A stretch of 64,000 nucleotides of DNA from NCBI RefSeq assembly GCF_050320075.1, contig NZ_CP190018.1, one strand, 5' to 3'. The notes beneath the pieces were generated by a model. The model was given only the letters and a program-made list of their open reading frames with translations. It was not told the DNA's origin and ran no database searches. Origin of the DNA: Escherichia coli (GTDB lineage Bacteria > Pseudomonadota > Gammaproteobacteria > Enterobacterales > Enterobacteriaceae). Shown here piece after piece: positions 4,586 to 22,274 of this stretch. Numbering within the stretch: the first letter of the stretch is position 1; each line of letters starts with the position of its first letter. The position numbers were made by a program, and so were the translations under genes.

Positions 4586-4701
4586 AAGTAGGGAGGGGAG
4601 AAACATCTCTCTCCATCTAAATAATCAAATCACAGAACACTGCACTTTGAGCCGTCAGGCTGCAAGGTGTGTTTTTCTTTTATCTAAATAAGGAGTTTTT
4701 T

Positions 4702-4884: not shown

Positions 4885-4907
4885 TAACAGGAGAAGGAGA
4901 AAACCAA

Positions 4908-5084
4908 ATGAATATTAATTTTGATTCTGCAACTTATAACGCGTTGTTAAATCGTGCAAAGGCAGAAGGGAAATCAATTCCAAAACTTGTTAATGAATTA
5001 CTAATTACAGTCCTTACAAAGGAGGAACTAAATGAACCAAAACACCAAAACAATTGCCGAAGCAAAAGCGCAATGCCTCAATAA
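4908..5084 (+). CDS. Ribbon-helix-helix (CopG/Arc-like) DNA-binding protein (58 aa)
   Basis: Hand-translated: MNINFDSATYNALLNRAKAEGKSIPKLVNELL..., a beta-strand/helix/helix pattern. AGGAGAAGGAG lies upstream. The 3' end overlaps the next gene. Confidence 0.5.
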   Translation: MNINFDSATYNALLNRAKAEGKSIPKLVNELLITVLTKEELNEPKHQNNCRSKSAMPQ

Positions 5085-5697
5085 GAAAGATAGTAAACAA
5101 ACATATGTAGTAGTTGAACAATGGCTGAAGATGTTTAAAAAGTGGTTCTCACCGTCAGGTAAGGAATACACCGCGACACTTCCAGCCGTTGAAATCTACA
5201 GTTACGTAGCTGGGTTCAATGAACAAGGGCAAGAATGTTACGCCAATCAAAAAACATTAGCTAATATTGGAATGGTTAGTGATCGTCAGGTGCGTAATAT
5301 TATAAATATGTTTATTGATATGGGTGTTCTTTCTGTAGAGGCACGGGACGGGCAAACATCACTCTATAAAGCATTACCCTTTACAGATGCACACATCACA
5401 CCACCGGAAGACGTAAAAACCTCTGTAAACGTAGAACAGCCTGCACCTGAAACACAGGAACCGTTAGAAGCGACACACTCTATTGAGCAGGAAACACAGG
5501 CAGAAATCACGGAACAATCTGATCTTTTTACATGGCTTATTTCCATAGACAGCCAAAAGCCTATGCAAGAAGAAACAGAAAATTTTATAAAACGTGCACT
5601 GACCTCGAAGAGGATAATTCTTGAAGATGATGCTTTTAATGCACTGATGATAGCCCTGAGAAAAGAAAGTGAAATCTATGACTCAATACCATTTTAA
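5032..5697 (+). CDS. Winged-helix protein resembling RepA_N/DnaD-type replication initiators, with an acidic C-terminal half
   Basis: Strong SD AAGGAGG. The segment LPAVEIYSYVAGF...ECYANQKTLANIGMVSDRQVRNIINMFIDMGVLSVEARDGQTSLY fits the initiator wHTH pattern as I recall it. Confidence 0.7.
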   Translation: MNQNTKTIAEAKAQCLNKKDSKQTYVVVEQWLKMFKKWFSPSGKEYTATLPAVEIYSYVAGFNEQGQECYANQKTLANIGMVSDRQVRNIINMFIDMGVLSVEARDGQTSLYKALPFTDAHITPPEDVKTSVNVEQPAPETQEPLEATHSIEQETQAEITEQSDLFTWLISIDSQKPMQEETENFIKRALTSKRIILEDDAFNALMIALRKESEIYDSIPF

Positions 5698-5709
5698 GGA
5701 GAATAAAAA

Positions 5710-5967
5710 ATGAAATACAACCTGACATTAAACAAACGAACATTCGAAATTACAGAAAGCGGCTACACACTGGCAAAACAGCTTGCTGATAGCAATTATG
5801 AGCTACCCGCGATTATCAGCTTTCAGGAGTTACCTCATAGTAAAGAACACACACAGCACTGGTTAAATCACCTGAGCCATTTTGGGGTAATTAAGTATGA
5901 GGCTGTGAATAGTCAGACGTTCCGTTTGCTTGAGATAAGCCCTTTCGAATTGTGGGTGGCGCTGTGA
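5710..5967 (+). CDS. Hypothetical protein (85 aa), possibly winged-helix
   Basis: ORF with SD, lying in the operon. Confidence 0.65.
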   Translation: MKYNLTLNKRTFEITESGYTLAKQLADSNYELPAIISFQELPHSKEHTQHWLNHLSHFGVIKYEAVNSQTFRLLEISPFELWVAL

Positions 5968-6170
5968 CCATATTCGATAGCGAATTTTCACAAGAAACCT
6001 TTCTGCAATATTTACGGGAAAGAACGGGAATGATTCTGTTTGATTCTGAGTTTTCCGGTGTGGTAGGTGAGCAATTTTTATATGCTCTTCTCGATAGCCT
6101 AAGTAAACAAGGATTATTGCAGTATACCAAAACTCATATGAAAGCATTCAGAATCGACTCTGTAGCTTAA
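5964..6170 (+). CDS. Hypothetical protein (about 68 aa) with an internal tandem (I/L)FDSEFS repeat
   Basis: GTG at 5964 overlaps the upstream stop as GTGA, suggesting translational coupling. The track ORF begins at 5952. Confidence 0.55.
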   Translation: MTIFDSEFSQETFLQYLRERTGMILFDSEFSGVVGEQFLYALLDSLSKQGLLQYTKTHMKAFRIDSVA

Positions 6171-6206
6171 AACAAACAACTATCAAACATCTTGAAGGGT
6201 GAAACA

Positions 6207-6347
6207 ATGGAAAGCTTAATATTTTTCTTAGTATTTATGATCGCTTCCTTTTTTAACACTGCAACAAGAAAAACAAAACGAAGGGGAAGCAATGAGCAAG
6301 AAAAAAGGCAAGAAAAACGTAATAACAACTATTGGCGAAGCATGTGA
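6207..6347 (+). CDS. Possible small membrane peptide (46 aa, MESLIFFLVFMIASFF... with a basic tail)
   Basis: Hand-translated. Weak SD AAGGG. Overlaps the next gene out of frame. Confidence 0.2.
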   Translation: MESLIFFLVFMIASFFNTATRKTKRRGSNEQEKRQEKRNNNYWRSM

Positions 6348-6672
6348 TCAGTATGCGTTAAACAATCCTCGCAAATATAATTATGAGCATGATGCACAAC
6401 CAGGCGAGGAATTGATCTTTATACTTGAAGAACCAAGCCCAGAATTAACAGACGAAGAATTATCACTCATTCAAAGTATGGACGGTGTTTACTTTAATCC
6501 GCGCCCACGCAAAACAACGGTTATAGATTCCAGTCTTCTGAAAAGATGGCAGTGTTTGGGTTTTCAGGATATGCACCACTTTAGGGGGTATATGGCTCTT
6601 AACAGTCTGCAATATGCAGGGGTGAGAGAAACCGAATTACTTCTGCTTGATAAAATAAAAATCGACGATTAA
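6292..6672 (+). CDS. Hypothetical protein (126 aa), basic N-terminus
   Basis: ORF with SD (AAGGGGA). No motif recognised. Confidence 0.7.
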   Translation: MSKKKGKKNVITTIGEACDQYALNNPRKYNYEHDAQPGEELIFILEEPSPELTDEELSLIQSMDGVYFNPRPRKTTVIDSSLLKRWQCLGFQDMHHFRGYMALNSLQYAGVRETELLLLDKIKIDD

Positions 6673-6713
6673 CAGCGTTTGCTGAATATAACCCTTAACA
6701 AAAGGAAAATAAA

Positions 6714-6935
6714 ATGATTAACAAAGCAATTTTAGAGACAACCACTTTTCACGATCTTAAACTTCTTTCTGAATGCTTCATAAGCCTGATTGAACGTGCA
6801 CAGGAAGAAAACGATCTCGGTTTACTCGATGATATTATAGACAACATTGCAACTTATAAAATCCCGCTCACTATTGCTATGAAGAAAGCTCGTGAAGCAC
6901 AACAACAATTAGAACAATCAGAGGAAGTGGCATAA
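6714..6935 (+). CDS. Hypothetical acidic helical protein (73 aa)
   Basis: ORF with SD. The stop overlaps the next start as TAATG. Confidence 0.7.
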   Translation: MINKAILETTTFHDLKLLSECFISLIERAQEENDLGLLDDIIDNIATYKIPLTIAMKKAREAQQQLEQSEEVA

Positions 6936-7243
6936 TGAGCGAAGTACACAACGTAACTATTGAAATGATGGATCTGGTTATTGATTTACAGAAAGCAGTA
7001 AACGCGGCTCTGACTTTTCCAAGCGAGCTAACCATCACACAGGCGGTTATTAATCTGGAATCGACGCGGGAAGCACTGCAACTACTTATTGCAGCGTGCG
7101 AAGAGAGCGAAGGTGCACAGATTGAAGCTGATGACCTTTCTAATCTGATCATCGTCATTCATGACACCACTGAAATCATGAAAGAAGCGGTAGCAGATCT
7201 GCAACCCCTCATTAATGAATTAATCGATAAGGCTAACAACTAA
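6935..7243 (+). CDS. Hypothetical strongly acidic helical protein (102 aa)
   Basis: By my count about 19 D/E against 4 K/R. TAATG overlaps at both ends. Confidence 0.7.
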   Translation: MSEVHNVTIEMMDLVIDLQKAVNAALTFPSELTITQAVINLESTREALQLLIAACEESEGAQIEADDLSNLIIVIHDTTEIMKEAVADLQPLINELIDKANN

Positions 7244-7452
7244 TGTCAAAAACTAAACGTGTGCGCCTTCTGGCGCTCACAGAAGAAGGGAAAGCGGGTA
7301 ATTGTTTCACAGTAGGTAAAGTGTATACCGGCTTACTCGACACTTACACCCGCCTGATGCACGTAACCGATGATAACGGTAACGATCAAACAATCGTTTT
7401 AGATGGTAATTGCGTATTTGGTGAGTGGGAACTGACAACCGAAAAAAGTTGA
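7243..7452 (+). CDS. Hypothetical protein (69 aa)
   Basis: Translationally coupled ORF and the last gene of the early operon. Confidence 0.7.
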   Translation: MSKTKRVRLLALTEEGKAGNCFTVGKVYTGLLDTYTRLMHVTDDNGNDQTIVLDGNCVFGEWELTTEKS

Positions 7453-7471
7453 AAATAATTGCATTTACCTA

Positions 7472-7500
7472 TTGACTTTTACTAACAGAAATGTTAGAAT
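7472..7500 (+). promoter_or_regulatory. Sigma70-like promoter (TTGACT-17-TAGAAT)
   Basis: Hexamers at 7472-7477 and 7495-7500, 20 nt after the early-operon stop. Confidence 0.5.
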
Positions 7501-7506
7501 AATAAA

Positions 7507-7749
7507 TGTTGGGTTTGGAATCGAAAATAGGTGTTAGCTGGCGTTAATCCTTCTCCCGATTCTAATCCTACACGAAAGCGGGGTAGACCTCAAGGGGTCG
7601 CGCCCTATCTAACCTATCCCGCTTTCCCTTTACAGTGATTTTTTAGAAATTGTTTCCCTCGTTAATAGTTTCATTTTATTTTCCTTATTGCTTTATCAAA
7701 ATTGTGTCTTAAGAATGCAGGGGCTACGGATTTGGCCCCTCATCTTTTT
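7507..7749 (+). ncRNA. Candidate structured leader or ncRNA 1
   Basis: No ORF longer than 20 codons. A 13 bp stem (7574-7586 with 7614-7626) encloses the AGGG-gtcgcg-CCCT hairpin. Ends at the terminator-like hairpin at 7719-7749. Confidence 0.3.
7719..7749 (+). terminator. Intrinsic terminator-like hairpin (AGGGGC...GCCCCT followed by T5)
   Basis: 6 bp GC stem at 7719-7724 and 7735-7740, with a T-run at 7745-7749. Confidence 0.5.
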
Positions 7750-7869
7750 AACCAACTGCGAAGCATGAAACACTTTCTAAAAACACTGTTTACAGTGTCT
7801 ATAAACCCCGTATAAACAAATAACGGTGTATATCTGTTTCTTGACAACAGTTTTCTACTAAGCTTAAAG

Positions 7870-8290
7870 CTGAATATGTTTTTGTTTGTTGGTGTTTATT
7901 AAGGTGCCAATCTTAGAACGCGAAAGCGTGGATGATCCCCGAAATCATCTCGGCACCGCCTCCTATTAAAATGAGAATCCAAAAGGTTTGAAAGTTAATA
8001 GGTGATTCCTGAAAGTCTGATCGATGCATCCACATTGTGAAAGACAGCGATTAGCCGTCGCACGAATAACAGGTTTATAGATTCCTCTCCAAAGGGGGCG
8101 ACCTCCTAAGCGCCTACTCCCTGTAAGCCTGTTATTCACCCCTCAAGGGTATATAACAATAAGCAATCTTATTCTTATATGTCCTCCTCTTTAAGTTCAT
8201 ATAAACTGCGATTTAGTAACACTCTATAACATCCTTCAAATGTTGTATTCATAAAGCCGGAAGCTTTCCCCTTCCGGTTTTATTTTTATC
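7870..8290 (+). ncRNA. Candidate long structured RNA 2 (about 420 nt). The 5' end is uncertain.
   Basis: A possible promoter is TTGACA at 7841-7846 with a weak -10 TTAAAG. A three-way junction is formed by GGTGCC 7903-7908 with GGCACC 7952-7957, the GNRA hairpin ACGC-GAAA-GCGT at 7918-7929, and GATGAT/ATCATC at 7931-7949. An 8 bp stem pairs 7962-7969 with 7995-8002, and a 10 bp stem pairs 8064-8073 with 8128-8137. A strong terminator sits at 8253-8290. No ORF longer than 20 codons. Confidence 0.4.
8253..8290 (+). terminator. Intrinsic terminator (CCGGAAG-ctttccc-CTTCCGG followed by a T-rich tail)
   Basis: 7 bp GC-rich stem extended by A-U/G-U pairs, then TTTTATTTTTAT. It lies about 40 nt before the first head-module gene. 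Confidence 0.7.
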
Positions 8291-8330
8291 AGCACTAAAC
8301 AAGACTGTTAGGAATAAAGGTAAAGCAATA

Positions 8331-8546
8331 ATGCAAAATCTCATTCTAAAGAATGGTAACGAAGAATTGGTTATCACTGATGAAACATTCAATGCTACGG
8401 CTTATATGCTGGGGATCACTCCCACAGAATTGAAAAAACATTGTGATAAGCTTTTTAAGTCTGCTGATGAACAGAAACCTACTATGCAGGATCTGATTAA
8501 AGCAAAAGCAGAACAAATCAAACAATCCAAAAAAGGAAACTATTAA
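8331..8546 (+). CDS. Hypothetical protein (71 aa), first gene of the head module
   Basis: ORF with SD. No motif recognised. Confidence 0.7.
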   Translation: MQNLILKNGNEELVITDETFNATAYMLGITPTELKKHCDKLFKSADEQKPTMQDLIKAKAEQIKQSKKGNY

Positions 8547-8548
8547 TT

Positions 8549-8920
8549 ATGGCTATTATTAATATGAGCGATCTGTTTCCAGTTCGCAAATCATTTACCG
8601 ATATCGTTTCATATGCAACTGATGAGTTCGGTTGTGTGCAATCTTTTACCGTTGATCTGGCGGTTGATGTTGAATGCGGCGATCTGATTACCAGTGACGG
8701 CGCTGAATATGTAAGCGGCGGCGATGTTCTTGTAGTTGTGTCTGATGCGGTATCCGCTGGCGACGCTAAAACCGTTAACGTGCTGCGTAGCAATGCCGGA
8801 CTGGTTTGCATCAAGTCCGATGCTCTGAATGTTGAAGGCGCTGTGAAAGAAGCTGCTATTGCTGCCCTGGCTGCAAAAGGTTTCCAGATGGCTGGTTTTA
8901 ACACTGTATTCACATCTTAA
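8549..8920 (+). CDS. Head decoration / capsid-cement-like protein (gpD / DUF2190-like)
   Basis: 123 aa, Gly/Ala/Val-rich beta-type protein immediately upstream of the capsid gene. The size, position and G..V......G.....V pattern are typical of decoration proteins. The assignment rests on pattern, not on an alignment. Confidence 0.6.
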   Translation: MAIINMSDLFPVRKSFTDIVSYATDEFGCVQSFTVDLAVDVECGDLITSDGAEYVSGGDVLVVVSDAVSAGDAKTVNVLRSNAGLVCIKSDALNVEGAVKEAAIAALAAKGFQMAGFNTVFTS

Positions 8921-8938
8921 TATAAAGGAATAAAAATA

Positions 8939-9967
8939 ATGATTATTGGTAATGAATCCGTCGATCTGGCTCCGCTGTTTAGTCTGCACGACTCTCGCAA
9001 CTTCCTGTTAACTTCTCTCGACTTTACTGATCCGGTAGGTGTGAGTTCTCATAAAGTGGCTGTTAGCCAACTGGTGGAAACTAACGAATCTCTGTTCAAC
9101 AAAGAAACCTCTCGTTTCTCTTCTGAACATAACGTGACTAAACGTGAACAGGGTAAAGAATTTTTAGTAGAGATCCCCTACTTCCTGCGTGAAGATATGA
9201 TTAAGCCGCAAGACGTGCAAGGCAAACGTAAACCAGGCGCTACCGTTGAAGAAACTCTGACAGATATCTACGCGGAATATGTTGCTAAGCACCACATTGC
9301 TTTCCAGCGTACTAAAGAAAGCGTGCTGGCTGCTTCCCTGTTCTCTGGTCGCACTTACACCCCTAAAACTGATGATGTGCTGATCCAGTGGGGCGATCTG
9401 TTTAGTGTTGTTCCGATGACTGCAACCATCGACGCATCAAGCACCACGCCTTCTATGGTGTTCCAGCAATTCGATCAGATGCATACAGACGTTATTACTA
9501 AAGCACAAAGCCAGGCGGCTGCTGTAGAACGTATCGTTGTATTCTGTAAACCTGCTGCTTTCAACGCTATCCGTTACAGTGCTGGCATGGTTAACGCGTT
9601 CCAGTATGCAAGCCCTACCGATGACGCAAACATCGTTTATAGCGTGCGCTCCCTGCTGCCAGGTGTGACTACCTTCACTATTCCTGGGACTAACATCGAT
9701 ATCGTTAAAGTTACTGATCCGCTGCTGCTGGCTCATATGACTTCTGATGCGGTTGCTGTTCCGAAGTTCGCTAAAGGCTCTAACGTCTATCAGAACATTT
9801 TCAGCGCTCCTTCTTCAACGTTCGACCTGCTGAATTCTGGCGCGGCTGAATATTACAGCTATGCGTTTAGCCCAGCACGTAACGACGCTGTAAACGTAGT
9901 TACTGAGAATAGCCAGATGGTTGTAAACCACGGCGTAGGCTTCACTGTACAGATCACAGTAGCGTAA
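8939..9967 (+). CDS. Major capsid protein, lambda gpE-like family
   Basis: 342 aa, close to the size I recall for gpE (about 341 aa). The IKPQDVQGKRKPG segment resembles the conserved P.D.QG.R..G region of the capsid E family. It follows a decoration-like gene as in lambda D-E. Confidence 0.75.
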   Translation: MIIGNESVDLAPLFSLHDSRNFLLTSLDFTDPVGVSSHKVAVSQLVETNESLFNKETSRFSSEHNVTKREQGKEFLVEIPYFLREDMIKPQDVQGKRKPGATVEETLTDIYAEYVAKHHIAFQRTKESVLAASLFSGRTYTPKTDDVLIQWGDLFSVVPMTATIDASSTTPSMVFQQFDQMHTDVITKAQSQAAAVERIVVFCKPAAFNAIRYSAGMVNAFQYASPTDDANIVYSVRSLLPGVTTFTIPGTNIDIVKVTDPLLLAHMTSDAVAVPKFAKGSNVYQNIFSAPSSTFDLLNSGAAEYYSYAFSPARNDAVNVVTENSQMVVNHGVGFTVQITVA

Positions 9968-10017
9968 TAAAGCGTTAATAGTCGTTTCCTGTGCGACTGG
10001 AAATAAAACAGGCAATA

Positions 10018-10081
10018 AGGGCAAAAGGGATTATTAAACCTGTAGCGCAAATACAGTAAACAATCTCTTTTGCCCTTTTTT
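10018..10081 (+). terminator. Long-stem terminator-like structure after the capsid gene
   Basis: AGGGCAAAAG at 10018-10027 pairs with CTTTTGCCCT at 10067-10076, followed by T5. An inner hairpin lies at 10040-10056. Confidence 0.45.
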
Positions 10082-10120
10082 CGTTTATACCGTCTATTAA
10101 AATATTGTGAGAGAAAAATC

Positions 10121-10312
10121 ATGAGCGAACAAAACAACAATCCAGTTGAGATCCTGAAAGCTGTTTCCACCTTACCGGAAGATATTCTGAATATCTCTCA
10201 AGTGTGTAAGTTTTTAGGGATCTCTAATACTGCTGTACGTCAAAGAATCTTCACTACTGGCTGCTCAGCTATGGAAGCAGTGCAATACTACGTAACAAAA
10301 CAAAACAAATAA
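10121..10312 (+). CDS. Small HTH DNA-binding protein (63 aa). Could be an excisionase/AlpA-like or small-terminase-like recognition protein.
   Basis: The ISQVCKFLGISNTAVRQRI helix-turn-helix. The track ORF start at 10070 lies inside the terminator, so the ATG at 10121 is preferred. Confidence 0.6.
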   Translation: MSEQNNNPVEILKAVSTLPEDILNISQVCKFLGISNTAVRQRIFTTGCSAMEAVQYYVTKQNK

Positions 10313-10330
10313 AAGGTAAAGGAAAATATT

Positions 10331-12172
10331 ATGGATTTAAACATCTCAACCTTAACAAACAAGGTTGTATTTAAAGTTGATTTTGCATCATTACAGAAAG
10401 CAAGGGACGCAGGGAAGAAATTTCAGAAAGAAATGGAAAACCTAACCAATCCAACATTGAAAGGGAAGAAGGCTAAACGAGCTATAGACGAGGCTCATGA
10501 TCTGGTAAAGGCTCGTAAAGCTGCACAGGCTAAAACTGATGCCAAAGCGTCAGACAAGCAAGCTCAAACCGATAAGAAGAACGCTGATAAGGTGGCAAAG
10601 GCAGAAGCTAAAGCGAAGGCTAAAGCCGCTATAGCTGCCGATAAACAGATCCGCGCTAAAGCGACAATAGCAGAGAAAGCAGAGATTAAGCGCCAGCAAG
10701 CTTTCAGACAGCTTGAAGGGATTAAGAAAGGGCGTATGGGCGACGGTATGGACTCCGCCCAATACTACAAAACGTTGCAATACATCAAAGCACAAACGGC
10801 AGCGTATGAGAAAGGCGCTATTAGTCAGGCTAAGATGAATCACCTGATCCGTGATCGTATCACGTTAGAACGCCGTGCGGCTGCTGTAAAAGCTCGCCAG
10901 GTGGCGGCTGATGGCGGTAAATATCCACATATGGCTAAACAGCTTAAAGGCGGTCATATAGGCGGTGGTGTAGGTGCAATGGTGGGCGGTGCCGCTCTCA
11001 CTGCTGCCACTCTCGGCGGTGCTGCGATATTCAATACCGTAACCGATCAGGCAAGCAAGATCACAGACACTAACCGCAAGGCAAAGGCTGTCAACGTAAA
11101 CACTAACGCCCTGTTAGCACTTAATCAGTACGGCTTAGAACACGGTGTCGATAGTTCCGTAGACCAACGTCAAGACAACCTTAAAGACGTTCAAGAGCGT
11201 TTAGGTGAATCCGTAGGGAATACCAAATGGGACGCTAAGAAAGGTCGCTGGGCTGGCGGTAATGGTGCCGTCGATAACATCCTTAATAAATATGGTTGGA
11301 GTCCTGAACAGATTAAAGGTTTCCAGACTGATCCATTAGGTTTCCTGGGCGCTGTAGTGAAAGAAGGAGAACGCCGTGGACTCTCTGATCAGGAGCAGGG
11401 TCACATCCTTGAAGACCTTGGAAATGATTTACAATATTTCCGTGGTGCTTTCAGTCGTAACGGTGAAGAGCTAAATAAAACCATCGTTAAGATGCAAAAA
11501 GCCAATGCCACCTATGCGCAAGCGGATCTTGACGCTGCTGAACGTCTGCAAGCTGTACAGGCTAATATGAATATGGCCTGGGAAGGTAGTAAGAAAGCTA
11601 TCATGACGGGATTCGGTGAAGAGTTCGACGCTCAGGCTGGTGAAGAGTGGGCGCAAATGTTGAAAGATCTCAATCCTCTGTTTAAAGAACTTGGAAGCTC
11701 AACGGCTGAAATGATGAGCGCCTTTGCTGGTGCTGTATCGTGGCTTACTGCTGCATACCAGAATATAAATCCAGAGAACAAACATGAAAACCTTGATTCG
11801 TCCGGTATGTATTATAAGGATTCGTTTGTAGGCGGCATGGTTGATTGGGGTCGTAGTGCTTTAGGCTTATCGCCTATCCCTGGCACGGAAGACAAGCCAA
11901 CGACTGGCGGAACTGCAATTCAGAACTATTCAAGCCCGTCCGATAACGTGCAATCCCTGAAAGAGAACGTTAGCCGTGATCTGAACACTACCCCATCTAT
12001 GACGTATGCGCCAAGCATTGTCGTAAACGTGCCAGAAAGTAAGGTTGATGTGAATATCGCTCCTGATGGTAGTCAGCTTGGATCATACCTCGATTACAAA
12101 GTGGGAAGTATCCAACAAGATTTTGAACGTAGTTTCACGTTGGCGGCTCTGTCTGGGCAAGCACCAAGTTAA
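10331..12172 (+). CDS. Large structural protein, tape-measure-like (Lys/Ala coiled coil plus glycine-zipper hydrophobic segment)
   Basis: 613 aa. The N-terminal KAEAKAKAKAA-type repeats and GGHIGGGVGAMVGGAALTAATLGGAAIF are typical of tape-measure or DNA-pilot proteins. Confidence 0.6.
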   Translation: MDLNISTLTNKVVFKVDFASLQKARDAGKKFQKEMENLTNPTLKGKKAKRAIDEAHDLVKARKAAQAKTDAKASDKQAQTDKKNADKVAKAEAKAKAKAAIAADKQIRAKATIAEKAEIKRQQAFRQLEGIKKGRMGDGMDSAQYYKTLQYIKAQTAAYEKGAISQAKMNHLIRDRITLERRAAAVKARQVAADGGKYPHMAKQLKGGHIGGGVGAMVGGAALTAATLGGAAIFNTVTDQASKITDTNRKAKAVNVNTNALLALNQYGLEHGVDSSVDQRQDNLKDVQERLGESVGNTKWDAKKGRWAGGNGAVDNILNKYGWSPEQIKGFQTDPLGFLGAVVKEGERRGLSDQEQGHILEDLGNDLQYFRGAFSRNGEELNKTIVKMQKANATYAQADLDAAERLQAVQANMNMAWEGSKKAIMTGFGEEFDAQAGEEWAQMLKDLNPLFKELGSSTAEMMSAFAGAVSWLTAAYQNINPENKHENLDSSGMYYKDSFVGGMVDWGRSALGLSPIPGTEDKPTTGGTAIQNYSSPSDNVQSLKENVSRDLNTTPSMTYAPSIVVNVPESKVDVNIAPDGSQLGSYLDYKVGSIQQDFERSFTLAALSGQAPS

Positions 12173-12230
12173 TGATAAAGAGAATGTTTAATCACCATTT
12201 AAAACACTCTTATAAGGAATTAAGCATATA

Positions 12231-12257
12231 AGAGGCTCCCATTACAAGGAAGCCTCT
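12231..12257. terminator. Hairpin between convergent genes (AGAGGCT...AGCCTCT)
   Basis: 7 bp stem followed by TTATT. It sits between the stop at 12172 and the integrase stop at 12280. Confidence 0.45.
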
Positions 12258-12279
12258 TTATTGCGCCTATGGCGTTGTT

Positions 12280-13455
12280 TTAAGCCTTAAAATCAATATT
12301 TAATTCATATCTTACTAATTCTACATATTCAGCTAATTCTGGAATGCTTGCCCCTTGTGAGTAGGTGCGAAAGGCTTCTGTTTTAGCTCTCTGCTCTGTA
12401 TGTCCGGTAATGGCACCGATCCGCTGTTCAGGCACTCCGGCACGATCAAGACAAGTGATAAACATCCCGCGCAAGCTGTGAAAGCATTGTCTATTTGTAG
12501 CGATTGGCAAGACGCTACGACGTAAACGTGAGAACGCTTGAGAATAGAACGGGCCTTTCTTACCGTCGATTCTTTTTACTTTGTTCGAGTGAGGGAACAA
12601 ATATTCACCATAATTATGATTTAAATATTCATCGACAATAATCGATAGTCTCGAATGTATCGGAACGTGCCTGATCCCTGCTTTAGTCTTACTTTTGCTG
12701 ATATAAAAACAGCGTATTCCTTCCACAGTTACAACCTCTGACTTTTTCAGACTTGCCAGTTCGTCTAATCTGCATCCTGAAAACAAGCCCATTAAAATAA
12801 TATTTCTGATCTCCGGCTCCGCTGCATCAAGTAGCTTTTGCATTTGTTCAGGTGTAAACGGTTGATAACTCTCGATTGTGCGACGTGCTTCGAGATTATG
12901 ACCGTGAAAAGGGTTACTGTCTGGTATTCCGTCATAACGGCGTTTAGCAAATTCATAGAGCGATCCTAAGCATGTAAGCCAGTTTTGACGAGATTGATCG
13001 GCTGCTCCTCGTTGCTTCTGGTCATCTAAGAATACTGTTACAAGCCGTCTGCCTATTTTCTCAATATGAATATCATCTTTCTGAATGCTTTGTAAAAATA
13101 GCTCAACGGCCCTTGCTGATTTCTGTAGTGTTGAGTATGAACGACGCTCTCTGTAGCATTCGGCGTATTCGTCACGTATTAAGCATAGGGAAGGCGATGC
13201 ATAACCGCGTTTTACGGCTCTTTGCGTGTTTTTATTGGCCCTTGCCTCTGAATGTAAGGATTCAATAGCTTGTTGTAACCTCCTTTCGGGGTTATCAGGA
13301 TTATGTTTCCGCTTTAGTTCCTCCCATTCTAATAATAGATGGTTTCTGAATCTTCTCGCCTCATTCAGATCTCGTGTAGATGTGCTTTTTCTCCACAACT
13401 TGTAAGGGTAAAGATGACGTAAGTATTTAGGAACAAAAATCGGTGATGCTGCCAA
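12280..13455 (-). CDS. int: Tyrosine recombinase/integrase, 5'-truncated. The first about 5 codons of the open frame are IS1 end sequence.
   Basis: The C-terminal catalytic motifs HSLRG, GH and RTY are present. The N-terminal arm motif (VPKYL...KSTSTRDLNEARRF) begins abruptly. The ORF start (TTG at 13453-13455) lies inside the IS1 IRL, which begins at 13442. Confidence 0.85.
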   Translation of the reverse strand: MAASPIFVPKYLRHLYPYKLWRKSTSTRDLNEARRFRNHLLLEWEELKRKHNPDNPERRLQQAIESLHSEARANKNTQRAVKRGYASPSLCLIRDEYAECYRERRSYSTLQKSARAVELFLQSIQKDDIHIEKIGRRLVTVFLDDQKQRGAADQSRQNWLTCLGSLYEFAKRRYDGIPDSNPFHGHNLEARRTIESYQPFTPEQMQKLLDAAEPEIRNIILMGLFSGCRLDELASLKKSEVVTVEGIRCFYISKSKTKAGIRHVPIHSRLSIIVDEYLNHNYGEYLFPHSNKVKRIDGKKGPFYSQAFSRLRRSVLPIATNRQCFHSLRGMFITCLDRAGVPEQRIGAITGHTEQRAKTEAFRTYSQGASIPELAEYVELVRYELNIDFKA

Positions 13456-13496
13456 CTTACTGATTTAGTGTATGATGGTGTTTTTGAGGTGCTCCA

Positions 13497-13772
13497 GTGG
13501 CTTCTGTTTCTATCAGCTGTCCCTCCTGTTCAGCTACTGACGGGGTGGTGCGTAACGGCAAAAGCACCGCCGGACATCAGCGCTATCTCTGCTCTCACTG
13601 CCGTAAAACATGGCAACTGCAGTTCACTTACACCGCTTCTCAACCCGGTACGCACCAGAAAATCATTGATATGGCCATGAATGGCGTTGGATGCCGGGCA
13701 ACCGCCCGCATTATGGGCGTTGGCCTCAACACGATTTTCCGCCATTTAAAAAACTCAGGCCGCAGTCGGTAA
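13497..13772 (+). CDS. insA: IS1 InsA
   Basis: 91 aa, [40 protein letters not shown]..., recognised. Confidence 0.95.
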
Positions 13773-14194
13773 CCTCGCGCATACAGCCGGGCAGTGACGT
13801 CATCGTCTGCGCGGAAATGGACGAACAGTGGGGATACGTCGGGGCTAAATCGCGCCAGCGCTGGCTGTTTTACGCGTATGACAGGCTCCGGAAGACGGTT
13901 GTTGCGCACGTATTCGGTGAACGCACTATGGCGACGCTGGGGCGTCTTATGAGCCTGCTGTCACCCTTTGACGTGGTGATATGGATGACGGATGGCTGGC
14001 CGCTGTATGAATCCCGCCTGAAGGGAAAGCTGCACGTAATCAGCAAGCGATATACGCAGCGAATTGAGCGGCATAACCTGAATCTGAGGCAGCACCTGGC
14101 ACGGCTGGGACGGAAGTCGCTGTCGTTCTCAAAATCGGTGGAGCTGCATGACAAAGTCATCGGGCATTATCTGAACATAAAACACTATCAATAA
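13691..14194 (+). CDS. insB: IS1 InsB' frame, expressed as the InsAB' transposase by -1 frameshifting
   Basis: 167 aa frame overlapping insA. The slippery TTAAAAAAC motif lies at 13746-13754. Confidence 0.9.
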
Positions 14195-14478
14195 GTTGGA
14201 GTCATTACCCTTTGGCTATGAATAATTCTGATTTGACGAATCCAGAGGACTTATAGATCACTGTCTCCGGTTTAATAACTTGAATATAATCTAATTCTAA
14301 TATTTTAAACGCCTAATGATTTTTCAACACGGGTGTTATTCTGCTTACGCAAAAATTTTATTTTTAATTATATTTCATTATTATTTCATCAATGTATTCT
14401 TTGGATTTTGCTTATAATAATAATGGAAGGGATGATTATAAATGAATGCGTTATTGCATTTACACTCAGGATGAATAT

Positions 14479-15111
14479 ATGGGAAAGATTAAAATTGTAG
14501 TTTCAGATCAGCAGCCGTTTATGATTGATGGGATAATTGGATTTCTCGGACATTATCCCGATTTATATGAGGTTGTTGGGGGCTATAAAGATCTGAAGAA
14601 AGCTATCGCGGAGTGTAACAAATCTGCAGCCCAAATATTTATTTTAGGAGAATTTGCAGGTGGAATGATGGGGTCCGAACTCATAAAATGGGTTAAATCG
14701 CATAAAATAGATGCTCATATTATTACATTTGTAGCAAAAATGCCGTATATTGATTCAATAAAATTGCTTGAAGCCGGTGCGAAAGGATGCGTATGGAAAA
14801 CCAGTCATCCGGCGAAACTAAATCGCGCTATTGATTCGATTAGTAATGGTTACACTTATTTTGATAGTGTACATATGGATTGTGAAAAAATATCTTCAAG
14901 ATATTCCTCTGATAATCAACTTACAAATCGTGAGTCTGAAATACTACAACTCATAGCTGATGGGAAAACAAACAAAGAAATCGCTAATTTCTTGCAGTTA
15001 AGCAGGAAAACAGTCGAAACTCATAGACTCAATATCATGAAGAAATTAGATGTTCACAGTGGTATCGAGTTGATCAAAACAGCTTTACGTATGGGTGTTT
15101 GCACTATATAA
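14479..15111 (+). CDS. ygeK: LuxR/NarL-type response regulator
   Basis: Receiver-like N-terminus plus a C-terminal LuxR HTH ([22 protein letters not shown]). 210 aa from the ATG at 14479. Confidence 0.85.
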
Positions 15112-15129
15112 AAAAAAGAGGCTTTAGGT

Positions 15130-15633
15130 TTATTTTGCTAAAGCCTTACGCTTGTCTATTTCATTAAGTCTGGTATATACAACATATATTTTTTTTGCAT
15201 ATTGCAGCCTCTTTTTTTTGTTTTCCATTGCAAAACCCGCGTTATATGTCCCCAGACATTGCCACGTTACCCCACAACGTGAAAAATGATTATATAAAAT
15301 CTCGGTCCCTATTTTAATGTTCAGACAGGGGTTATCTAACAAATCTCGTCCATCTTTTATTATTCCACGTTTTTTTAACATGGGAATGTGCATCTGGTTT
15401 ATCTGCATTAAACCATAATCAACACTCTTTATATTGTTTTTCTTATCCCTGTTTTTGCCGATGCTATCATTTTTTAAATTACTTTCAACAAGAGCGATAG
15501 CTTTGATCAAATTTGGTTCGATTCTGAAAATTGATCCTGCTTCATTAAAGCAAGCGCTACTGGCGAAAGACATTTTTGTAATTAATATAGAAAACATGAA
15601 GATGGATAAGATTTTAACTTTGGGTAAGCGCAT
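15130..15633 (-). CDS. pbl: IagB/IpgF-like lytic transglycosylase
   Basis: Signal peptide plus the SLT motifs LVESN, YGLMQIN and TYNAG. Confidence 0.85.
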   Translation of the reverse strand: MRLPKVKILSIFMFSILITKMSFASSACFNEAGSIFRIEPNLIKAIALVESNLKNDSIGKNRDKKNNIKSVDYGLMQINQMHIPMLKKRGIIKDGRDLLDNPCLNIKIGTEILYNHFSRCGVTWQCLGTYNAGFAMENKKKRLQYAKKIYVVYTRLNEIDKRKALAK

Positions 15634-15716
15634 ATATTTTTATGTGTAGGATTGAAGGAAAGGAACGAGATACTAATATATTCAGTATCTCGTTAATCAT
15701 TTAAGTGGTCAATTAT

Positions 15717-15935
15717 CTACCATTCCAGTTCATAGTAAGGAGAGATAGGATTATCTTTCGAATACATATCATTTTGAAAAGATGCCATCCATGTTGAAAC
15801 TATAAATGCTTGTATTTGATCTGTATCAGTAGTACTGGTGGTGATGTGTTTATCTAATGAAACGACTTCATCACCCGTTGCGGTTGCTATATTTAAACTT
15901 TGAGAAAAATTATTCATATTGATTGGATTAGTCAT
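15717..15935 (-). CDS. ygeI: Small ETT2 protein
   Basis: 72 aa from MTNPINMNNF. The position matches K-12 ygeI. Confidence 0.7.
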   Translation of the reverse strand: MTNPINMNNFSQSLNIATATGDEVVSLDKHITTSTTDTDQIQAFIVSTWMASFQNDMYSKDNPISPYYELEW

Positions 15936-16102
15936 AAAATTCCCTTTTTTATTTGTCCAGGCCAATAGCCTATACACAATACTTTTTAATCTAGAGTATT
16001 TGATATATATTGCAATAAGGTAATTATCTTAGATGTTTTCATCTCTGTTGTTGACATAACCAGTTGCATACATCTAAACAATAAAATTGCGACAATAAAG
16101 AT

Positions 16103-17479
16103 TTATCGCATACAAATTCTCGTCAGTTGCTTTAGTTTCAAAATGTTGTCAATTATAACTCGATGGCTTTCACTCGAAGTTTCTTTATAGTAGAGTTTCA
16201 TGTTGCTTTTGAGCGGGTTAGGCACATACATATCTACACACTCTTTTATCACAACTGCTTTTCGTCTTCTGGGTTCGAGTTGTAGTGATTTGTCTATACA
16301 AATCCTTGCCTCTTCAATTCTTTCATTATGAAAATTGACAAGTGCTCTATAGTAGTAGAGAGAGGCTATATCAGTTGTGTGTATCTTAGCCTGTTCAAAT
16401 AAGATATGAGATACTTTTGCTTGTCCAGACAGACCAGTTATCAGTCCCATAATAGCTAAAATTTTTCCATCGACATTGGTTATGTCTGATACATAATGTA
16501 AAAGCTCTAATGCTTTTTGAGCAGCAAGTTCAAGTTCATACTTTCCATGAAGTGCCAAAGACATATGGCATTCCGCTAGCAGACAATAACATTCTATTTT
16601 TAGCGTCTGTATATCACTTTTATTTTGTAATCCATCAAATATAGCCATAGCCCTGTAAATGCTTTCAGGAGTAAACTCGTAAAGTTCTTTCTTACCAGCC
16701 AACAGTTCATCTGATAAATAATGATTCTTATAACCTTGGTCCGGTTTAGCTAATCTTACAGAACGCTCTGGATTATGTACCGTTTGAAGGATATTATCTA
16801 TAATAAATTGTGATGTGTTATGTAGTTCATCAACAGGAAGATGATTACTGGCGATGAGGAAAAGATTTTTAGCGTCGATCAGTTCAATGTATAAAGTTTT
16901 CACCGCGTTATTCTGGTTTATTCTTCCTGTAACGAAATAATCTGGCTTGAATCTTCTCAAAAATGAATTTTGCGATATGTGATCATTACAAAAATTTGTC
17001 GCAGCCATCGGATAGGTATAAAGGCCATCGATTTTTTTATTCGAAATGTTTTGCACTAATTCCTGATTAAGTATTAATGGATCCAGAGTATTCAATGAAG
17101 TGGTGAAAGGAAATATAGCTATGGAATAGTCTGAAGTGTTATCTTCATTTATTTTAGTTTTGAAAACCTGTCCACTGAAACGATAACCTTTCCGGTAGAT
17201 TGTTTCTATGCAACGATCATAGCCAATTTTTTCAAAAATGCAGCGCAAAGAATAGATACATCTTGTCAGGGACTCGTCACTTACAATAATATTTTTCCAT
17301 ACTGATTCGATGATCATATCTTTCAGGACAACATGACCAGCGGATTCAAGTAATACGATCAATACTCCTAACTCTTTCGGTGGAATATAAATCTGCTCAT
17401 TTCCTTGAGTAAGAATTCCATCTTCCGTGAGCGTTAATCCCTCGAGAAAATGATATGAGAATTTATTTTCTAAGTCCAT
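16103..17479 (-). CDS. ygeH: HilA-like transcriptional regulator (OmpR-type wHTH plus TPR)
   Basis: 458 aa. N-terminal winged helix ([10 protein letters not shown]...YRKGYRF) and a helical-repeat C-terminus. Confidence 0.9.
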
Positions 17480-17813
17480 TAGTTATCCTCTATGAAAAAA
17501 TTGGTTTCTTGCATCCTGCATAAGCAATAGAAATTGTGGCTATTCATATTTATGTGTCATTAATGCTACAGGAGTTTACATTCGACATATCTATGATTGT
17601 GTTCACTAATTTATCTTAGGAATTCAGTGATGTAATCTGAAATAGCCTTATTCAATTTTGATAAAATAGATTGTTCTCTAACGCGTTGAAAAATAGTAAT
17701 TTATAGTGTGTTCTTAACTGTTTTAAGATGTTGATTTAAGAAAACATAAGAGAAGCTGGTCATAGTGGTTAACTGCACTATAACCAGCAATTTTTACCAA
17801 ATGCTTGTAATGC

Positions 17814-18305
17814 TTAGCCATTATCTTCTGAATTATCGGTTAAGAGTTCAATATATGCCTGCGCTTTGCTCTTAACACTTTCATCCTCACAATTGTTAAT
17901 AATATGATAGAAACATTGCATTGCGTTATCGATATTTTTAGCCCCAATTTGACATTGACCCATACGATAAATAACTGAATAGTCATCATACGGGGAGTAA
18001 TTGTAACTTAGTTTGTAAAGGTCATATGCTTGTTGATATTTCTTTTTTGACTGGCATACTGATGCAAAACCTTTTAGATATTCATGATTTTCGAACGCAT
18101 AAATGCACAGAAATTTATAATAAATTTCTGCGTCCGTTATATTACCTTTTTCATGGTAGTCGAATGCATATGCATATATTCTATCAAGGATATCAGGAGT
18201 CAATCCATGTAGTAATGCCAGATTTTCTCCTTGTGATAATGCGTGTTTTAGTTGACTTGCCCATTCATCACTGTTATTGAATATTTCAAGTGTATCTGTG
18301 CTCAT
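17814..18305 (-). CDS. ygeG: SicA/LcrH-class type III secretion chaperone (TPR)
   Basis: 163 aa from MSTDTLEIFN with TPR-like repeats. The track ORF extends upstream to 18428. Confidence 0.85.
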   Translation of the reverse strand: MSTDTLEIFNNSDEWASQLKHALSQGENLALLHGLTPDILDRIYAYAFDYHEKGNITDAEIYYKFLCIYAFENHEYLKGFASVCQSKKKYQQAYDLYKLSYNYSPYDDYSVIYRMGQCQIGAKNIDNAMQCFYHIINNCEDESVKSKAQAYIELLTDNSEDNG

Positions 18306-18528
18306 AATATTCCTCTGTGATGTGTTTCGTGATGCTAAATTATTATTAATTGACTCATTATTTTTTGCATTTATCTTTTTTGAATTATGAGTTTTAAGCT
18401 TGCATTGCTTAAGGGTATATTGGTTCATTATTAGTAAAAATACTGACCACTATAAACCAATAATGTCATTAGTTTTTTTCTAATATTCACCTTATTAGTT
18501 ATCTTATTTACGACATTTCATAAATGCC

Positions 18529-19020
18529 TTAATATGCATGACCTTGATTCATATTATCAATTTCCCTTTTTTCGATGAAAATTAAAAAGGGGATTTTTGC
18601 GAAGGGTAGTAAGTCGTCTAGTTTTTTTTCTTTATTATGTCTGGTGACGAGGGGGGATAGAACGTCGGTGCATATAGTAGAGAATTTATTCAGGTCTAAA
18701 TTATTCTCTATTTTGGCCAGTTTTATGAGTTCATTTGTAGCCATACTCATTAAATCATCTGTTATCGGAAATTTATATATGCTCATAGCCGATAATATTG
18801 CTTGCTGAATTATTTCTTCAGAAATATCCGCTATCTTTATTGACAAATCATGTGTTAGATATTTTCCTCCAAGAGATTCTTGTTCAATATAATTTAAACC
18901 AGACCTCATCGTAATTTTAACTGGATTCACGTATTTCTCTTCATTTTTCTTATTTTTGTTCTCCTGATCAGGAACTAATGGTTGCAGTGGTAGGCTATTA
19001 TTAATATTTCGTGGCTTCAT
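18529..19020 (-). CDS. ygeF: ETT2 hypothetical protein
   Basis: 163 aa ORF in the conserved position. Confidence 0.7.
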   Translation of the reverse strand: MKPRNINNSLPLQPLVPDQENKNKKNEEKYVNPVKITMRSGLNYIEQESLGGKYLTHDLSIKIADISEEIIQQAILSAMSIYKFPITDDLMSMATNELIKLAKIENNLDLNKFSTICTDVLSPLVTRHNKEKKLDDLLPFAKIPFLIFIEKREIDNMNQGHAY

Positions 19021-19449
19021 TTTACATTTCTCTCATTTGATTAGAGCAAAATCCGAATTCGCAGCTTCTGATAATGTCAAATATCACCTTTTCTCATGCT
19101 TTATTCTATCAAAAATCGCTCATTTTTACTTTTTTTACCATAATGTTACTTAGTGGCATCGGCAATTTACATAACTTACATGTTGTTTTTTATATCCTGA
19201 AAAAACAGATAGATAGTGTGCACACTCGAAATGATATTGGTAACATAAATAGCTTTATTCGTGACAAACATCTCAAAAGATTTCCTTTATTATTTTCGAA
19301 ATTCATTTGATCAAGGTTATCACCTTATGGAGACGTTACGTAGAATGACTATATTTGTTATCGGCACATTAGGGGTATTAAATTTAGTATTGATGGAAGG
19401 TGATTATTGAACAGTAACATCGAGTCACGGTCAAAATGTGAGGTATATA

Positions 19450-19875
19450 ATGGACATTGAGTTTTCGCAGATTCATGAAATGGTCTATATGCATGATATT
19501 GTAAATTCGGACTCGAAAAAGAAACCAAGGATTCCGTTAAAAAAATTCCTTAATGCTGAGAAAGTTCTCACGCAAACAACATCATGGGTACTAAATTCAA
19601 GATATGTGAATGTTAATTCTGTCAGTAAAGTCAACGTAAAGAGTAAAGTTAAAAACAGTTATATCTCACGATCTGTCAATGATGAGTTTAGTTTAACAGA
19701 TGATGAAATCAATTCTTTTAAAGAAACGTTAGTCCTTTCCTCTATTGATTCTCTAAGTAAACTGGTTCTTAATAATCCTCTTTCTGTATTGTTTACATCG
19801 ACTGTACGAAGGAATAATAATAGAGCTAAGATGAATGTTGAGTTCGACTCATGGATTTGCACCAGATGTTGTTGA
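19450..19875 (+). CDS. yqeK: ETT2 hypothetical protein
   Basis: 141 aa from [10 protein letters not shown] in the conserved position. Confidence 0.65.
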
Positions 19876-20023
19876 TACATGATATTTTGCATTGCAAGGT
19901 GATATCTAAAATGAAAGATGTTGATCAAAACTTTGATGCTTTATACTGGCATATACTACAAGCATATTTAATTTTATTGTTTTATGATTAACGAGGTTCC
20001 ATCTTTTTATTATCTATTTAAGT

Positions 20024-20506
20024 TTACCTTGCACAATGCATTATTGCTCTGTTACCAATACTCAAAATAAAAGCATGCTTACCTTGCTTTAGTATATTAT
20101 AGCTTACACTTTTTTCTGGAAAGACATAAAAATCAGGAATAAGTTCTGCAAGTCTATCATCATCGACTTGATCCATGATCTCAAATTTATTAACTTTCTT
20201 TGATGTTAAATGGGCTGTGTCATAGTTTTCAATCCATGTGTATTCAATATTTCGCCGTATTGACTTACTTTCTCTGTTACCTTGTTGCCAGGTTCCGCTC
20301 AACGCAACAGTTCCTGTTTTATTTTTTTGGTTATACATAAAGTCGATGGTAAGATTTGCTCGCCCCTTGTCATTAAAAATTACCCAATTTGCAGTGCATG
20401 TTTCATTATATATCATTTTTTCTGCAGTATAAGAGTAAACAATGAAGAGAATAAACCCACTGATAAAAACTAAAATAAATAATAAGTTTTTTTTATAATC
20501 AATCAC
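20024..20506 (-). CDS. yqeJ: Small single-pass membrane/periplasmic protein
   Basis: N-terminal TM (LLFILVFISGFILFIVYSY). A GTG start at 20506 or 20518 overlaps the end of yqeI. Confidence 0.75.
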   Translation of the reverse strand: MIDYKKNLLFILVFISGFILFIVYSYTAEKMIYNETCTANWVIFNDKGRANLTIDFMYNQKNKTGTVALSGTWQQGNRESKSIRRNIEYTWIENYDTAHLTSKKVNKFEIMDQVDDDRLAELIPDFYVFPEKSVSYNILKQGKHAFILSIGNRAIMHCAR

Positions 20507-21308
20507 GATTAACCTCACGGTAAGACAGGGTTAAACAGCCTGCCACTTCATGTTGGTTATAGTTTTTATTGCATGCCATAACAATCATCCCTGGTGAGGA
20601 TTTTGCAAGAGGGAAGTATAACCACGGATATTTTTTACAGTTAATCCCCGAATCCAGTATCCGTGTCTTATATTTATCGAACTCTTTCAACCCATCAATT
20701 GTATCTTCTGTCACATTAAAATGGCAGCCATTAATTTCCGCAACAGTCTTGTAATCCTTGAAGAATGGCTTCGGTTGATTATTATTCCATAGCCAATGTG
20801 CAGAATATACGCCTATAGCAAATATGCTCAACATAATTAGATAACTTTTTATATGTTTGAGGATTTTGTTATTGAAATTGTTTGCGCCACCAATGCTCTC
20901 TTTGTACCCCGCATTACCTTTTATGGCAGGTGGGGCATTGTGTGTATGTGCGTCTGTTGAAGAGTTTATTACATGATTTTGTATGTTAATGTCATTATGA
21001 ATCTTGAATCCTCTTCTCGGCACGGTTGCAATAAGCGAGTGGGTGGTATCACCAACAGCGCGAAATCCGCGTCTGATAATGGATATGTTCTGATATAACG
21101 TGTTAGTTGGCACACGCATACCTTCTTCTTCCCAGACTCTGGTGAAAAAATCTTGTTGTGCAACCACATCAGGAAAAGCTTCAAGTAGAAGTGATAAACA
21201 ACGACTGGCTGGCGTTGTCAGAACGACGTTAAGATCGGCGTTATGTACCGATATTAATTTTCGGTGCTCAGGCCAGAACTCGATATTATCGTTAATAATC
21301 CAGTACAT
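20499..21308 (-). CDS. yqeI: ToxR/CadC-like membrane-anchored transcriptional regulator
   Basis: N-terminal OmpR-type wHTH (TVPRRGFKI), a central TM (IMLSIFAIGVYSAHWLW) and a periplasmic C-terminus. Confidence 0.85.
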   Translation of the reverse strand: MYWIINDNIEFWPEHRKLISVHNADLNVVLTTPASRCLSLLLEAFPDVVAQQDFFTRVWEEEGMRVPTNTLYQNISIIRRGFRAVGDTTHSLIATVPRRGFKIHNDINIQNHVINSSTDAHTHNAPPAIKGNAGYKESIGGANNFNNKILKHIKSYLIMLSIFAIGVYSAHWLWNNNQPKPFFKDYKTVAEINGCHFNVTEDTIDGLKEFDKYKTRILDSGINCKKYPWLYFPLAKSSPGMIVMACNKNYNQHEVAGCLTLSYREVNRD

Positions 21309-21641
21309 ACGTCAATAGACACTAAATCAATCAAAATGGAAATCACATAGTTTGCTAAGTATATTGGTATTTACGGCATAAATATATATTAATTTTATAT
21401 TTATCATAATGATTGAAATGAGGCTTTAATGTCGCAACGTAAAACTTTACGTAAATTAACATGATTAACATTTATGCCACTATTGTTTGTAAATTCATAT
21501 TTCGTAATGCTTCTGAATTTTTCGTGTGATGGTTTTAAATACCATGTTGTTTACTCTTGGGGTTACTGCTTATTTGTAAAATACGGGCATTTCAATAGAT
21601 GCCCGTATAAGCAGAGTATGATTCTGGCAGATTATTTAGTA

Positions 21642-22274
21642 TCAATGTTGGACCGAATGTGAACGAATAAATAACTCGTTTATTTTACCACCCATTCTCT
21701 TTTCGATTCGTTGCTTGTACGCGTAGATGCTACGGATATCCATATCCAGAACTTCAGCAATCTGATATGGATTATAACCAGAAACCATATATCCCATTAT
21801 GGTGAATTCCATCTGAGTTAATGTATTCCCTCTGGTAAATGATAAATAACGACCAATAAATAGTTGTCTGATCTTTTCATTGGCAACATCAAGACCATCA
21901 TCATTATATATGACAGCAGATATTGCAGAGTTGTGTTTTCGCCAGTAGTTAGCTAACGATTGCATATTGCGGTCGCTGACTAAAACAATCCCCATGTCAG
22001 TACTTGCAAGATAGTCAATCCAGTCTTTTTCAAGGAATAGACGTAAAAAACTTACTGAAAAATCGACAAAAATATATCCGCTTAATCTCGCATTGTGGTT
22101 TTTTGTTAAAATACCTTCCACCACACCACGATTAAAATATGAACTTTCTTCGGGCCACATACAAAAACACGAGTTTGCGCAATACTGCAAACGCGGTGAC
22201 TCTTCTGGCATTATTTGGCAATGCATTGAGCAACTATTGCATGTAAGACTTTTATAACGACTACAAAGCCCCAT
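21642..22274 (-). CDS. yqeH: LuxR-type HTH regulator
   Basis: C-terminal LTQMEFTIMGYMVSGYNPYQIAEVLDMDIRSIYAYKQRI. 210 aa from the internal ATG. Confidence 0.8.
   Translation of the reverse strand: MGLCSRYKSLTCNSCSMHCQIMPEESPRLQYCANSCFCMWPEESSYFNRGVVEGILTKNHNARLSGYIFVDFSVSFLRLFLEKDWIDYLASTDMGIVLVSDRNMQSLANYWRKHNSAISAVIYNDDGLDVANEKIRQLFIGRYLSFTRGNTLTQMEFTIMGYMVSGYNPYQIAEVLDMDIRSIYAYKQRIEKRMGGKINELFIRSHSVQH

Follow-up and report, generated by a model that had tools for sequence, protein, structure and literature searches.

A recent 19.5-kb deletion with a single IS1 at its scar joins a phage-derived island to the ETT2 remnant in Escherichia coli

A 64,000-nt stretch of Escherichia coli DNA (NCBI RefSeq assembly GCF_050320075.1, contig NZ_CP190018.1; the whole stretch is called the window below) contains one copy of the insertion sequence (IS) IS1, lodged between two blocks of DNA. 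To its left lies a phage-derived island, called island B here, whose tyrosine integrase gene (int) abuts the element. To its right lies the remnant of ETT2 (type III secretion system 2 of E. coli), beginning upstream of ygeK. The features of the junction, with the strand where one is assigned, are:

79-13441: phage-derived island, 13.4 kb, 41% G+C, with its right-hand 166 bp missing
12280-13441, minus strand: integrase remnant, comprising native codons 21-406 and the stop together with the last two bases of codon 20
13433-13441, plus strand: left flanking 9-mer, ACAAAAATC
13442-14209, plus strand: complete IS1 of the IS1B type, 768 bp, with insA, insB' and an A6C frameshift site
13442-13464: left inverted repeat (IRL) of IS1, GGTGATGCTGCCAACTTACTGAT
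13442-13455, minus strand: the part of the IRL that belongs to a hybrid open reading frame (ORF), 14 nt with a TTG start, residues M-A-A-S-P
13497-13772: insA
13691-14194: insB' frame
13748-13754: A6C frameshift motif, AAAAAAC
14187-14209: right inverted repeat (IRR) of IS1, an imperfect inverted copy of the IRL ending in ...GAGTCATTACC
14210-14218, plus strand: right flanking 9-mer, CTTTGGCTA, corresponding to position 39881 of strain Ec-FL1-1X (locus L012)
14210-22334: ETT2 remnant with ygeK, a pbl/ygeJ-like transglycosylase gene, ygeI, ygeH, ygeG, yqeK, yqeJ, yqeI and yqeH
14446/14479-15111, plus strand: ygeK

The element, read directly from the letters, has the hallmarks of the IS1 family: a length of 768 bp, imperfect terminal repeats of ~23 bp, and insA and insB' joined by a programmed -1 frameshift at the A6C site. 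It is 99.1-100% identical to copies annotated as IS1A or IS1B in other genomes and differs by one base from the IS1 of strain YZLc1-3, for which the annotation gives an IS1B family transposase with programmed frameshifting. The flanking 9-mers ACAAAAATC and CTTTGGCTA share 0 of 9 bases in register, i.e. there is no target-site duplication. Eight other IS1 copies from the same chromosomal region of other E. coli genomes served as controls, and perfect duplications of 8-9 bp flank six of them. The two that lack a duplication are the copy in TOE3, which marks another deletion junction, and the copy in YZLc1-3, which sits at the same junction as in the window. The missing duplication is explained by a later deletion and is no argument against the identity of the element as IS1. 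Redefining the ends of IS1 to regain a duplication is ruled out, since the native sequence of an IS1-free genome resumes exactly at 13441 and at 14210.

The IS1-free strain Ec-FL1-1X carries both the island and a complete ETT2, in the order glyU (a tRNA-Gly gene), island, right attachment site (attR), GH15 gene and, at the far end, ygeK. The flanks of the window IS1 map to this locus in the same orientation, at breakpoints 20400|20401 and 39880|39881 (L012), with 19,480 bp between them. Gone from the window are 59 nt of the int coding sequence, the 85-nt spacer upstream of it, the 22-bp attR and 19,314 bp of ETT2, running from the GH15 gene to the gene upstream of ygeK. A sister genome, 266917_2, matches the window at 99.94% identity across the 20.8 kb right of IS1 and has a complete ETT2 directly after glyU (GH15, ghoT-like, eivF, sctC, sctV, sctN, epa, epr, orgA, a hypothetical gene, ygeK). 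Overall, the flanks of the window IS1 are 99.6-100% identical to those of its relatives. A single IS at the scar and flanks that are colinear with an IS-free reference are as expected for an adjacent deletion. The attR-GH15 junction predicted to have existed before the deletion is present in 118 complete genomes. Because the island and ETT2 were already neighbours, the scar records a local deletion of 19.5 kb and not the joining of distant loci.

These comparisons bear directly on a reading of the window made from its sequence alone. That sequence-only reading described IS1 as complete but flanked by different 9-mers, concluded that it had not simply inserted at this place, and noted that the ETT2 apparatus genes and tRNA-proximal part were missing. 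All of this stands: the flanks are colinear but far apart in Ec-FL1-1X, and eiv, epa and epr are all absent from the window, which keeps the ygeK-yqeH part. Its proposal that two formerly separate sequences had been joined also holds, with one refinement. The flanks were indeed apart before the event, but the island ended 166 bp from the left breakpoint and the two loci were already adjacent.

Among 5426 complete E. coli genomes the int|IS1 junction occurs in one, YZLc1-3; it also occurs in a tight clade of draft assemblies, and a look-up of the exact hybrid protein in public assemblies gave matches in at least 52 index blocks. The junction can be called recent because only this one complete genome has it. 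In contigs long enough to cross IS1, an identical left junction, ...GGAACAAAAATC|IS1, is joined to three right-hand partners:

partner 1, the site upstream of ygeK (position 20001 of 266917_2, locus L006): the window, YZLc1-3 and two similar contigs
partner 2, the eivI/J region (position 10440 of 266917_2, L006), a 9.9-kb deletion nested in that of the window: GCA_050489405.1
partner 3, TetR/MFS/TetR genes, an IS6-family transposase gene and a gene for a 291-aa class A beta-lactamase: GCA_050489245.1 (L019)

The junction-sharing assemblies differ from the window by at most one single-nucleotide polymorphism (SNP) over 10.9 kb of island and IS1, and the window IS1 is 100% identical to the IS1 at the eivI/J junction. 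In GCA_050489245.1 a chromosomal resistance region is attached to the IS1 lodged in int, and the contig stops before the far boundary of that region. Because one int|IS1 junction has three right-hand partners in near-identical assemblies, the left junction is the older, anchored one, and it was from the IS1 already resident there that events spread to the right. The recurrence of this junction with three right-hand partners is new and constitutes a natural nested series at one IS1 anchor.

We favour a history in two steps and hold it to be somewhat more probable than its converse. The ancestor would have had the arrangement glyU-(island A)-island B-attR-complete ETT2. IS1 would have inserted in codon 20/21 of the island B integrase gene, presumably duplicating ACAAAAATC. 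The right (IRR) end of this resident IS1 would then have targeted AT-rich DNA just upstream of ygeK, at a distance of 19.5 kb. Such intramolecular replicative transposition would discard the intervening DNA and the duplication and keep one IS1. The sequence-only reading had offered adjacent deletion and inter-IS1 recombination as alternatives; a deletion junction of this general origin is upheld, and adjacent deletion is favoured because the nested deletions share their IS-proximal endpoint.

Three observations weigh against this history. No relative with IS1 in int and a duplicated ACAAAAATC was found among the complete genomes or in two JGI metagenome scans. Position 13703 of IS1 is C in the window and GCA_050489405.1 and T in YZLc1-3 and GCA_050489245.1, a distribution at odds with the right-hand junctions, which suggests that IS1 copies exchange sequence by recombination or conversion or that the history of the variants is more complex. 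Finally, in other lineages ygeK and the ~350 bp upstream of it are a hot spot that has received IS1 four times independently, each time with a duplication, and a second IS1 upstream of ygeK is therefore plausible. The insertions and the distribution of the SNP would both fit a RecA-dependent crossover between two direct IS1 copies, one in int and one upstream of ygeK with CTTTGGCTA duplicated, that left a single hybrid IS1. The chromosome of YZLc1-3 has ~22 IS1 matches, and recombination of this kind is named as a common cause of missing duplications (PMC11708052). However, for a crossover each of the three right-hand sites would have had to receive its own IS1, identically oriented, within a nearly clonal group, and no genome was found with IS1 at exactly CTTTGGCTA: neither the JGI metagenome scans nor the other genomes compared have IS1 there, upstream of ygeK, with a duplication. 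The IS1 copies near ygeK in APEC20/16, LD27-1, 24AR0142 and SW071618, considered as candidates for the same right junction, were rejected, being at different positions and having duplications of their own. We regard such a crossover as a serious possibility, though one that probably did not occur.

Two further explanations fare worse. An incoming IS1 that inserted and deleted 19.5 kb in one step, without a copy already resident, would likewise leave a single IS1 without a duplication, and insertion-deletions of this type have been proposed for IS5 and IS481 (PMC11708052). The three right-hand partners would then require three independent insertions at the same base pair of int, which makes this course very unlikely. 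That IS1 simply inserted and its duplication then decayed, or that the assembly wrongly collapsed reads spanning an IS1, is conceivable in general terms. Yet the flanking 9-mers have no base in common in register, the flanks map 19,480 bp from each other in IS1-free genomes, the junction recurs in an independent complete genome and two further contigs, and a flank identity of 99.6-100% to relatives leaves no time for decay; we consider either version extremely improbable. A resident IS1 in int followed by adjacent deletion thus remains our preferred account.

The deletion also truncated the integrase. The native protein has 406 aa and a GTG start. In the window, the hybrid ORF (12280-13455, minus strand) encodes M-A-A-S-P followed by native residues 21-406; residues 1-20 (MSIKSQAYLFKRKDGIWMFQ) are lost and the rest is 100% identical to the copy in O26:H11. 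Orthologues from Klebsiella, Citrobacter, Enterobacter and Cronobacter (66-80% identity) span 98-99% of the native protein, and all begin 20 aa upstream of the junction, with the conserved pattern Y8-L9...G15-x-W17-x-F19-Q20. They rule out a natural start near the IS1 junction; a few shorter database entries (P0009, P0013 and P0120) begin later, at internal methionines. The Pfam domain DUF6538 at native residues 8-61 scores 37.4 bits; truncation lowers this to 23.0 bits, under the cut-off of 27 bits. A model of the domain that contains the lost residues has the arm-binding domains of the lambda and Yersinia high-pathogenicity island (HPI) integrases as its best match, and the modelled three-stranded sheet plus helix agrees with an N-terminal arm-type DNA-binding domain. 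The lost residues account in this model for strand 1 and the greater part of strand 2, i.e. about half of the beta-sheet of the arm-binding domain would be gone.

The catalytic part shows no comparable damage. PF00589 matches with 48.5 bits, R244, K269/271, H341, R344, H367 and Y380 are invariant in 17 sequences including the window copy, and the best Foldseek match of the integrase is full-length lambda Int. The hybrid ORF has lost the native promoter and start codon, and no properly spaced Shine-Dalgarno sequence precedes the substitute TTG (upstream bases ...AAATCAGTAAG|TTG). A scan for promoters that read outwards and might serve this ORF gave nothing above chance level. Judged by these features, expression of the hybrid integrase is doubtful. 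RefSeq lists the 391-aa product as WP_252148749.1 (L002, 19139-20314), a 'tyrosine-type recombinase/integrase', without a flag for truncation or fusion to IS1.

The ability of the island to excise also depends on its attachment (att) sites. Two features at its left end are relevant:

61-78, plus strand: left att repeat TTCCCTTCGCCCGCTCCA, 18 bp of the 3' end of the glyU tRNA gene
132-142, plus strand: candidate arm-type integrase site, the 11-mer CAGTTACCTAT

IS1-free copies of the island have at both ends the direct repeat TCGATTCCCTTCGCCCGCTCCA, 22 bp of the glyU 3' end (L001, L003-L005 and L012), and in O26:H11 strain FORC_028 and in Ec-FL1-1X the island directly follows glyU. The window copy has the left repeat only; the right one falls within the deleted 166 bp. 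In the window the 61-78 repeat is preceded not by the tRNA gene but by the right end of another, P4-like island. The 11-mer CAGTTACCTAT occurs once on either side of the core in the reconstructed attP, and the copy between int and attR lies within the deleted DNA. The integrase gene had been expected beside glyU; it is instead at the far (attR) end, reading away from attR.

Three statements of the sequence-only reading about this end of the island prove correct. The integrase has lost its N-terminus, although by 20 residues only, all within a region conserved in orthologues; its open frame now starts inside the IS1 inverted repeat, at the TTG of the IRL; and the int-proximal att site, which lies 85 nt upstream of the native start in IS1-free copies as the glyU 22-bp repeat, is absent.

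With one att repeat left and an integrase without promoter, start and intact arm-binding domain, island B is expected to have lost self-excision, and on the sequence evidence autonomous excision is very probably gone. The neighbouring P4-like island should still be able to excise via glyU and the 61-78 repeat, without freeing island B. Intact genes in an immobilised island could reflect recent trapping or retention for another function. The window island is 99-100% identical to the O26:H11 copy, whose backbone differs by ~6% at ygeK, and the island genes would look intact because the island was trapped recently, the junction being confined to a near-clonal clade. Recent trapping would suffice as an explanation, and retention for another function does not appear to be required.

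A broader combined reading would make this IS1 a live rearrangement hub in a near-clonal, poultry-associated lineage that keeps the trapped island or its integrase for a benefit to the host; taken as a whole we consider it unlikely. If the hub part were true, ETT2 would have been eroded stepwise (by 9.9 kb, then 19.5 kb) and a tet/beta-lactamase region captured into the chromosome. If the retention part were true, the host would benefit from a capsid-encoding, satellite-like island or from an arm-less integrase translated from the IS1-derived TTG.

The deletion can be set beside several known systems. IS1-promoted deletions in the gal region, reportedly described by Reif and Saedler in 1975, are the classical case, and nested deletions with a common IS-proximal endpoint are the classical sign of adjacent deletion (see also PMC11708052). 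The window agrees with these in that a single IS is kept, the deletion starts exactly at the IS end, there is no duplication and the deletions form a nested set; unlike them, it is known from natural assembly variants alone. A general model of adjacent deletion by IS elements is summarised in PMC11708052, where IS150 in the Lenski long-term experiment had a duplication in 0 of 14 deletion-associated events and in 69 of 69 simple insertions. There, as we propose for the window, the IS came first and the flanking deletion next, sometimes growing stepwise, which parallels the six of eight controls and the nested 9.9- and 19.5-kb deletions. The systems differ in that IS150 belongs to the IS3 and not the IS1 family and in that the order of events was watched directly over time.

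ETT2 has reportedly undergone mutational attrition, as set out by Ren et al. in 2004. It lies beside glyU and exists in many deletion isoforms (PMC11068852, PMC3977695), in which apparatus genes are lost and regulators such as ygeH, ygeK and yqeI are kept (PMC11068852). The window represents one more isoform without apparatus genes. Unlike the usual isoforms, it has one endpoint outside ETT2, in the integrase gene of the neighbouring island, such that one event hit both ETT2 and a mobile element. An int-IS1-ygeK isoform was not found described in the literature searched. A further parallel is the copy of the HPI in E. coli that lacks one flanking repeat and is a fixed island. Both are tRNA-integrated elements with a heterobivalent integrase of the lambda/HPI type that lost one direct repeat, but the loss in the window is very recent, being seen in 1 of 5426 complete genomes, with the island still 99-100% identical to mobile copies.

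Thus, the locus is a new, well-resolved instance of IS-driven erosion of the ordinary, textbook kind. It involves no new mechanism, and its practical value lies in annotation, as RefSeq reads the hybrid ORF as an intact integrase. One IS1 had two effects: a degenerate secretion system lost its structural genes, and a recently mobile phage-like island was very probably fixed in the chromosome. Together with the shorter nested deletion and the resistance-region relatives it makes up a small natural series that could be used to time and order IS1-driven events.

Island B itself is found in 213 of the 5426 complete genomes. Its products include a YecR lipoprotein, a serine invertase, a replication-initiator-like protein, an E-family major capsid protein, a tape-measure-like protein and the tyrosine integrase. 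An ORF-poor stretch of ~2.3 kb inside it (2347-4668), upstream of the replication-initiator-like gene, is rich in short direct and inverted repeats, among them a 23-mer repeated exactly in tandem (3552-3597) and a 32-nt repeat (3280/3340); an origin or iterons may be located here. A search of window positions 1-15000 against Rfam returned no matches. A T-rich run at ~3767 varies in length relative to other copies of the island.

The islands at glyU occur in arrays. In YZLc1-3 the P4-like island (L011, 29462-48900) lies between glyU and the 13.4-kb island, which is second in the tandem, and positions 1-78 of the window begin inside the right end of the P4-like island. The latter encodes an integrase, AntA/B, an Icd-like protein, a DUF927 primase, SSB, ProQ/FinO and PerC. 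Three further large hypothetical ORFs in it (843, 686 and 918 aa) may represent defence cargo. In O26:H11 FORC_028 a different island, with a 535-aa site-specific integrase, DUF4145, Rha and IS66, lies on the right-hand side of attR, with a third glyU repeat closing it off (L001, 18894-27844). Different lineages thus carry different tandem combinations at glyU.

ZJ3920 (L003), MSI001 (L004) and TOE3 (L005) carry the same island, have IS1 within a few hundred base pairs of its attR end and have lost ETT2 partly or wholly. In ZJ3920, IS1 is inside yqeG and has a duplication; in MSI001 it lies 21 bp past attR, also with a duplication; TOE3 has the order int-IS1-yqeG and no duplication. IS1-associated erosion of the island/ETT2 locus is recurrent.

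In the window the distance from the beginning of the ETT2 remnant is 236 nt to the longest ygeK ORF and 269 nt to the start of ygeK given in RefSeq, and beyond the remnant follow yqeG, yqeF, kduID, araE, lysRA and further core genes. The ygeK ORF is intact in the window lineage, and its product is the one also encoded by 266917_2 and Ec-FL1-1X; K-12-like genomes, O26 and several others have ygeK annotated with an internal stop. The window IS1 reads towards ygeK, 236-269 nt upstream of it.

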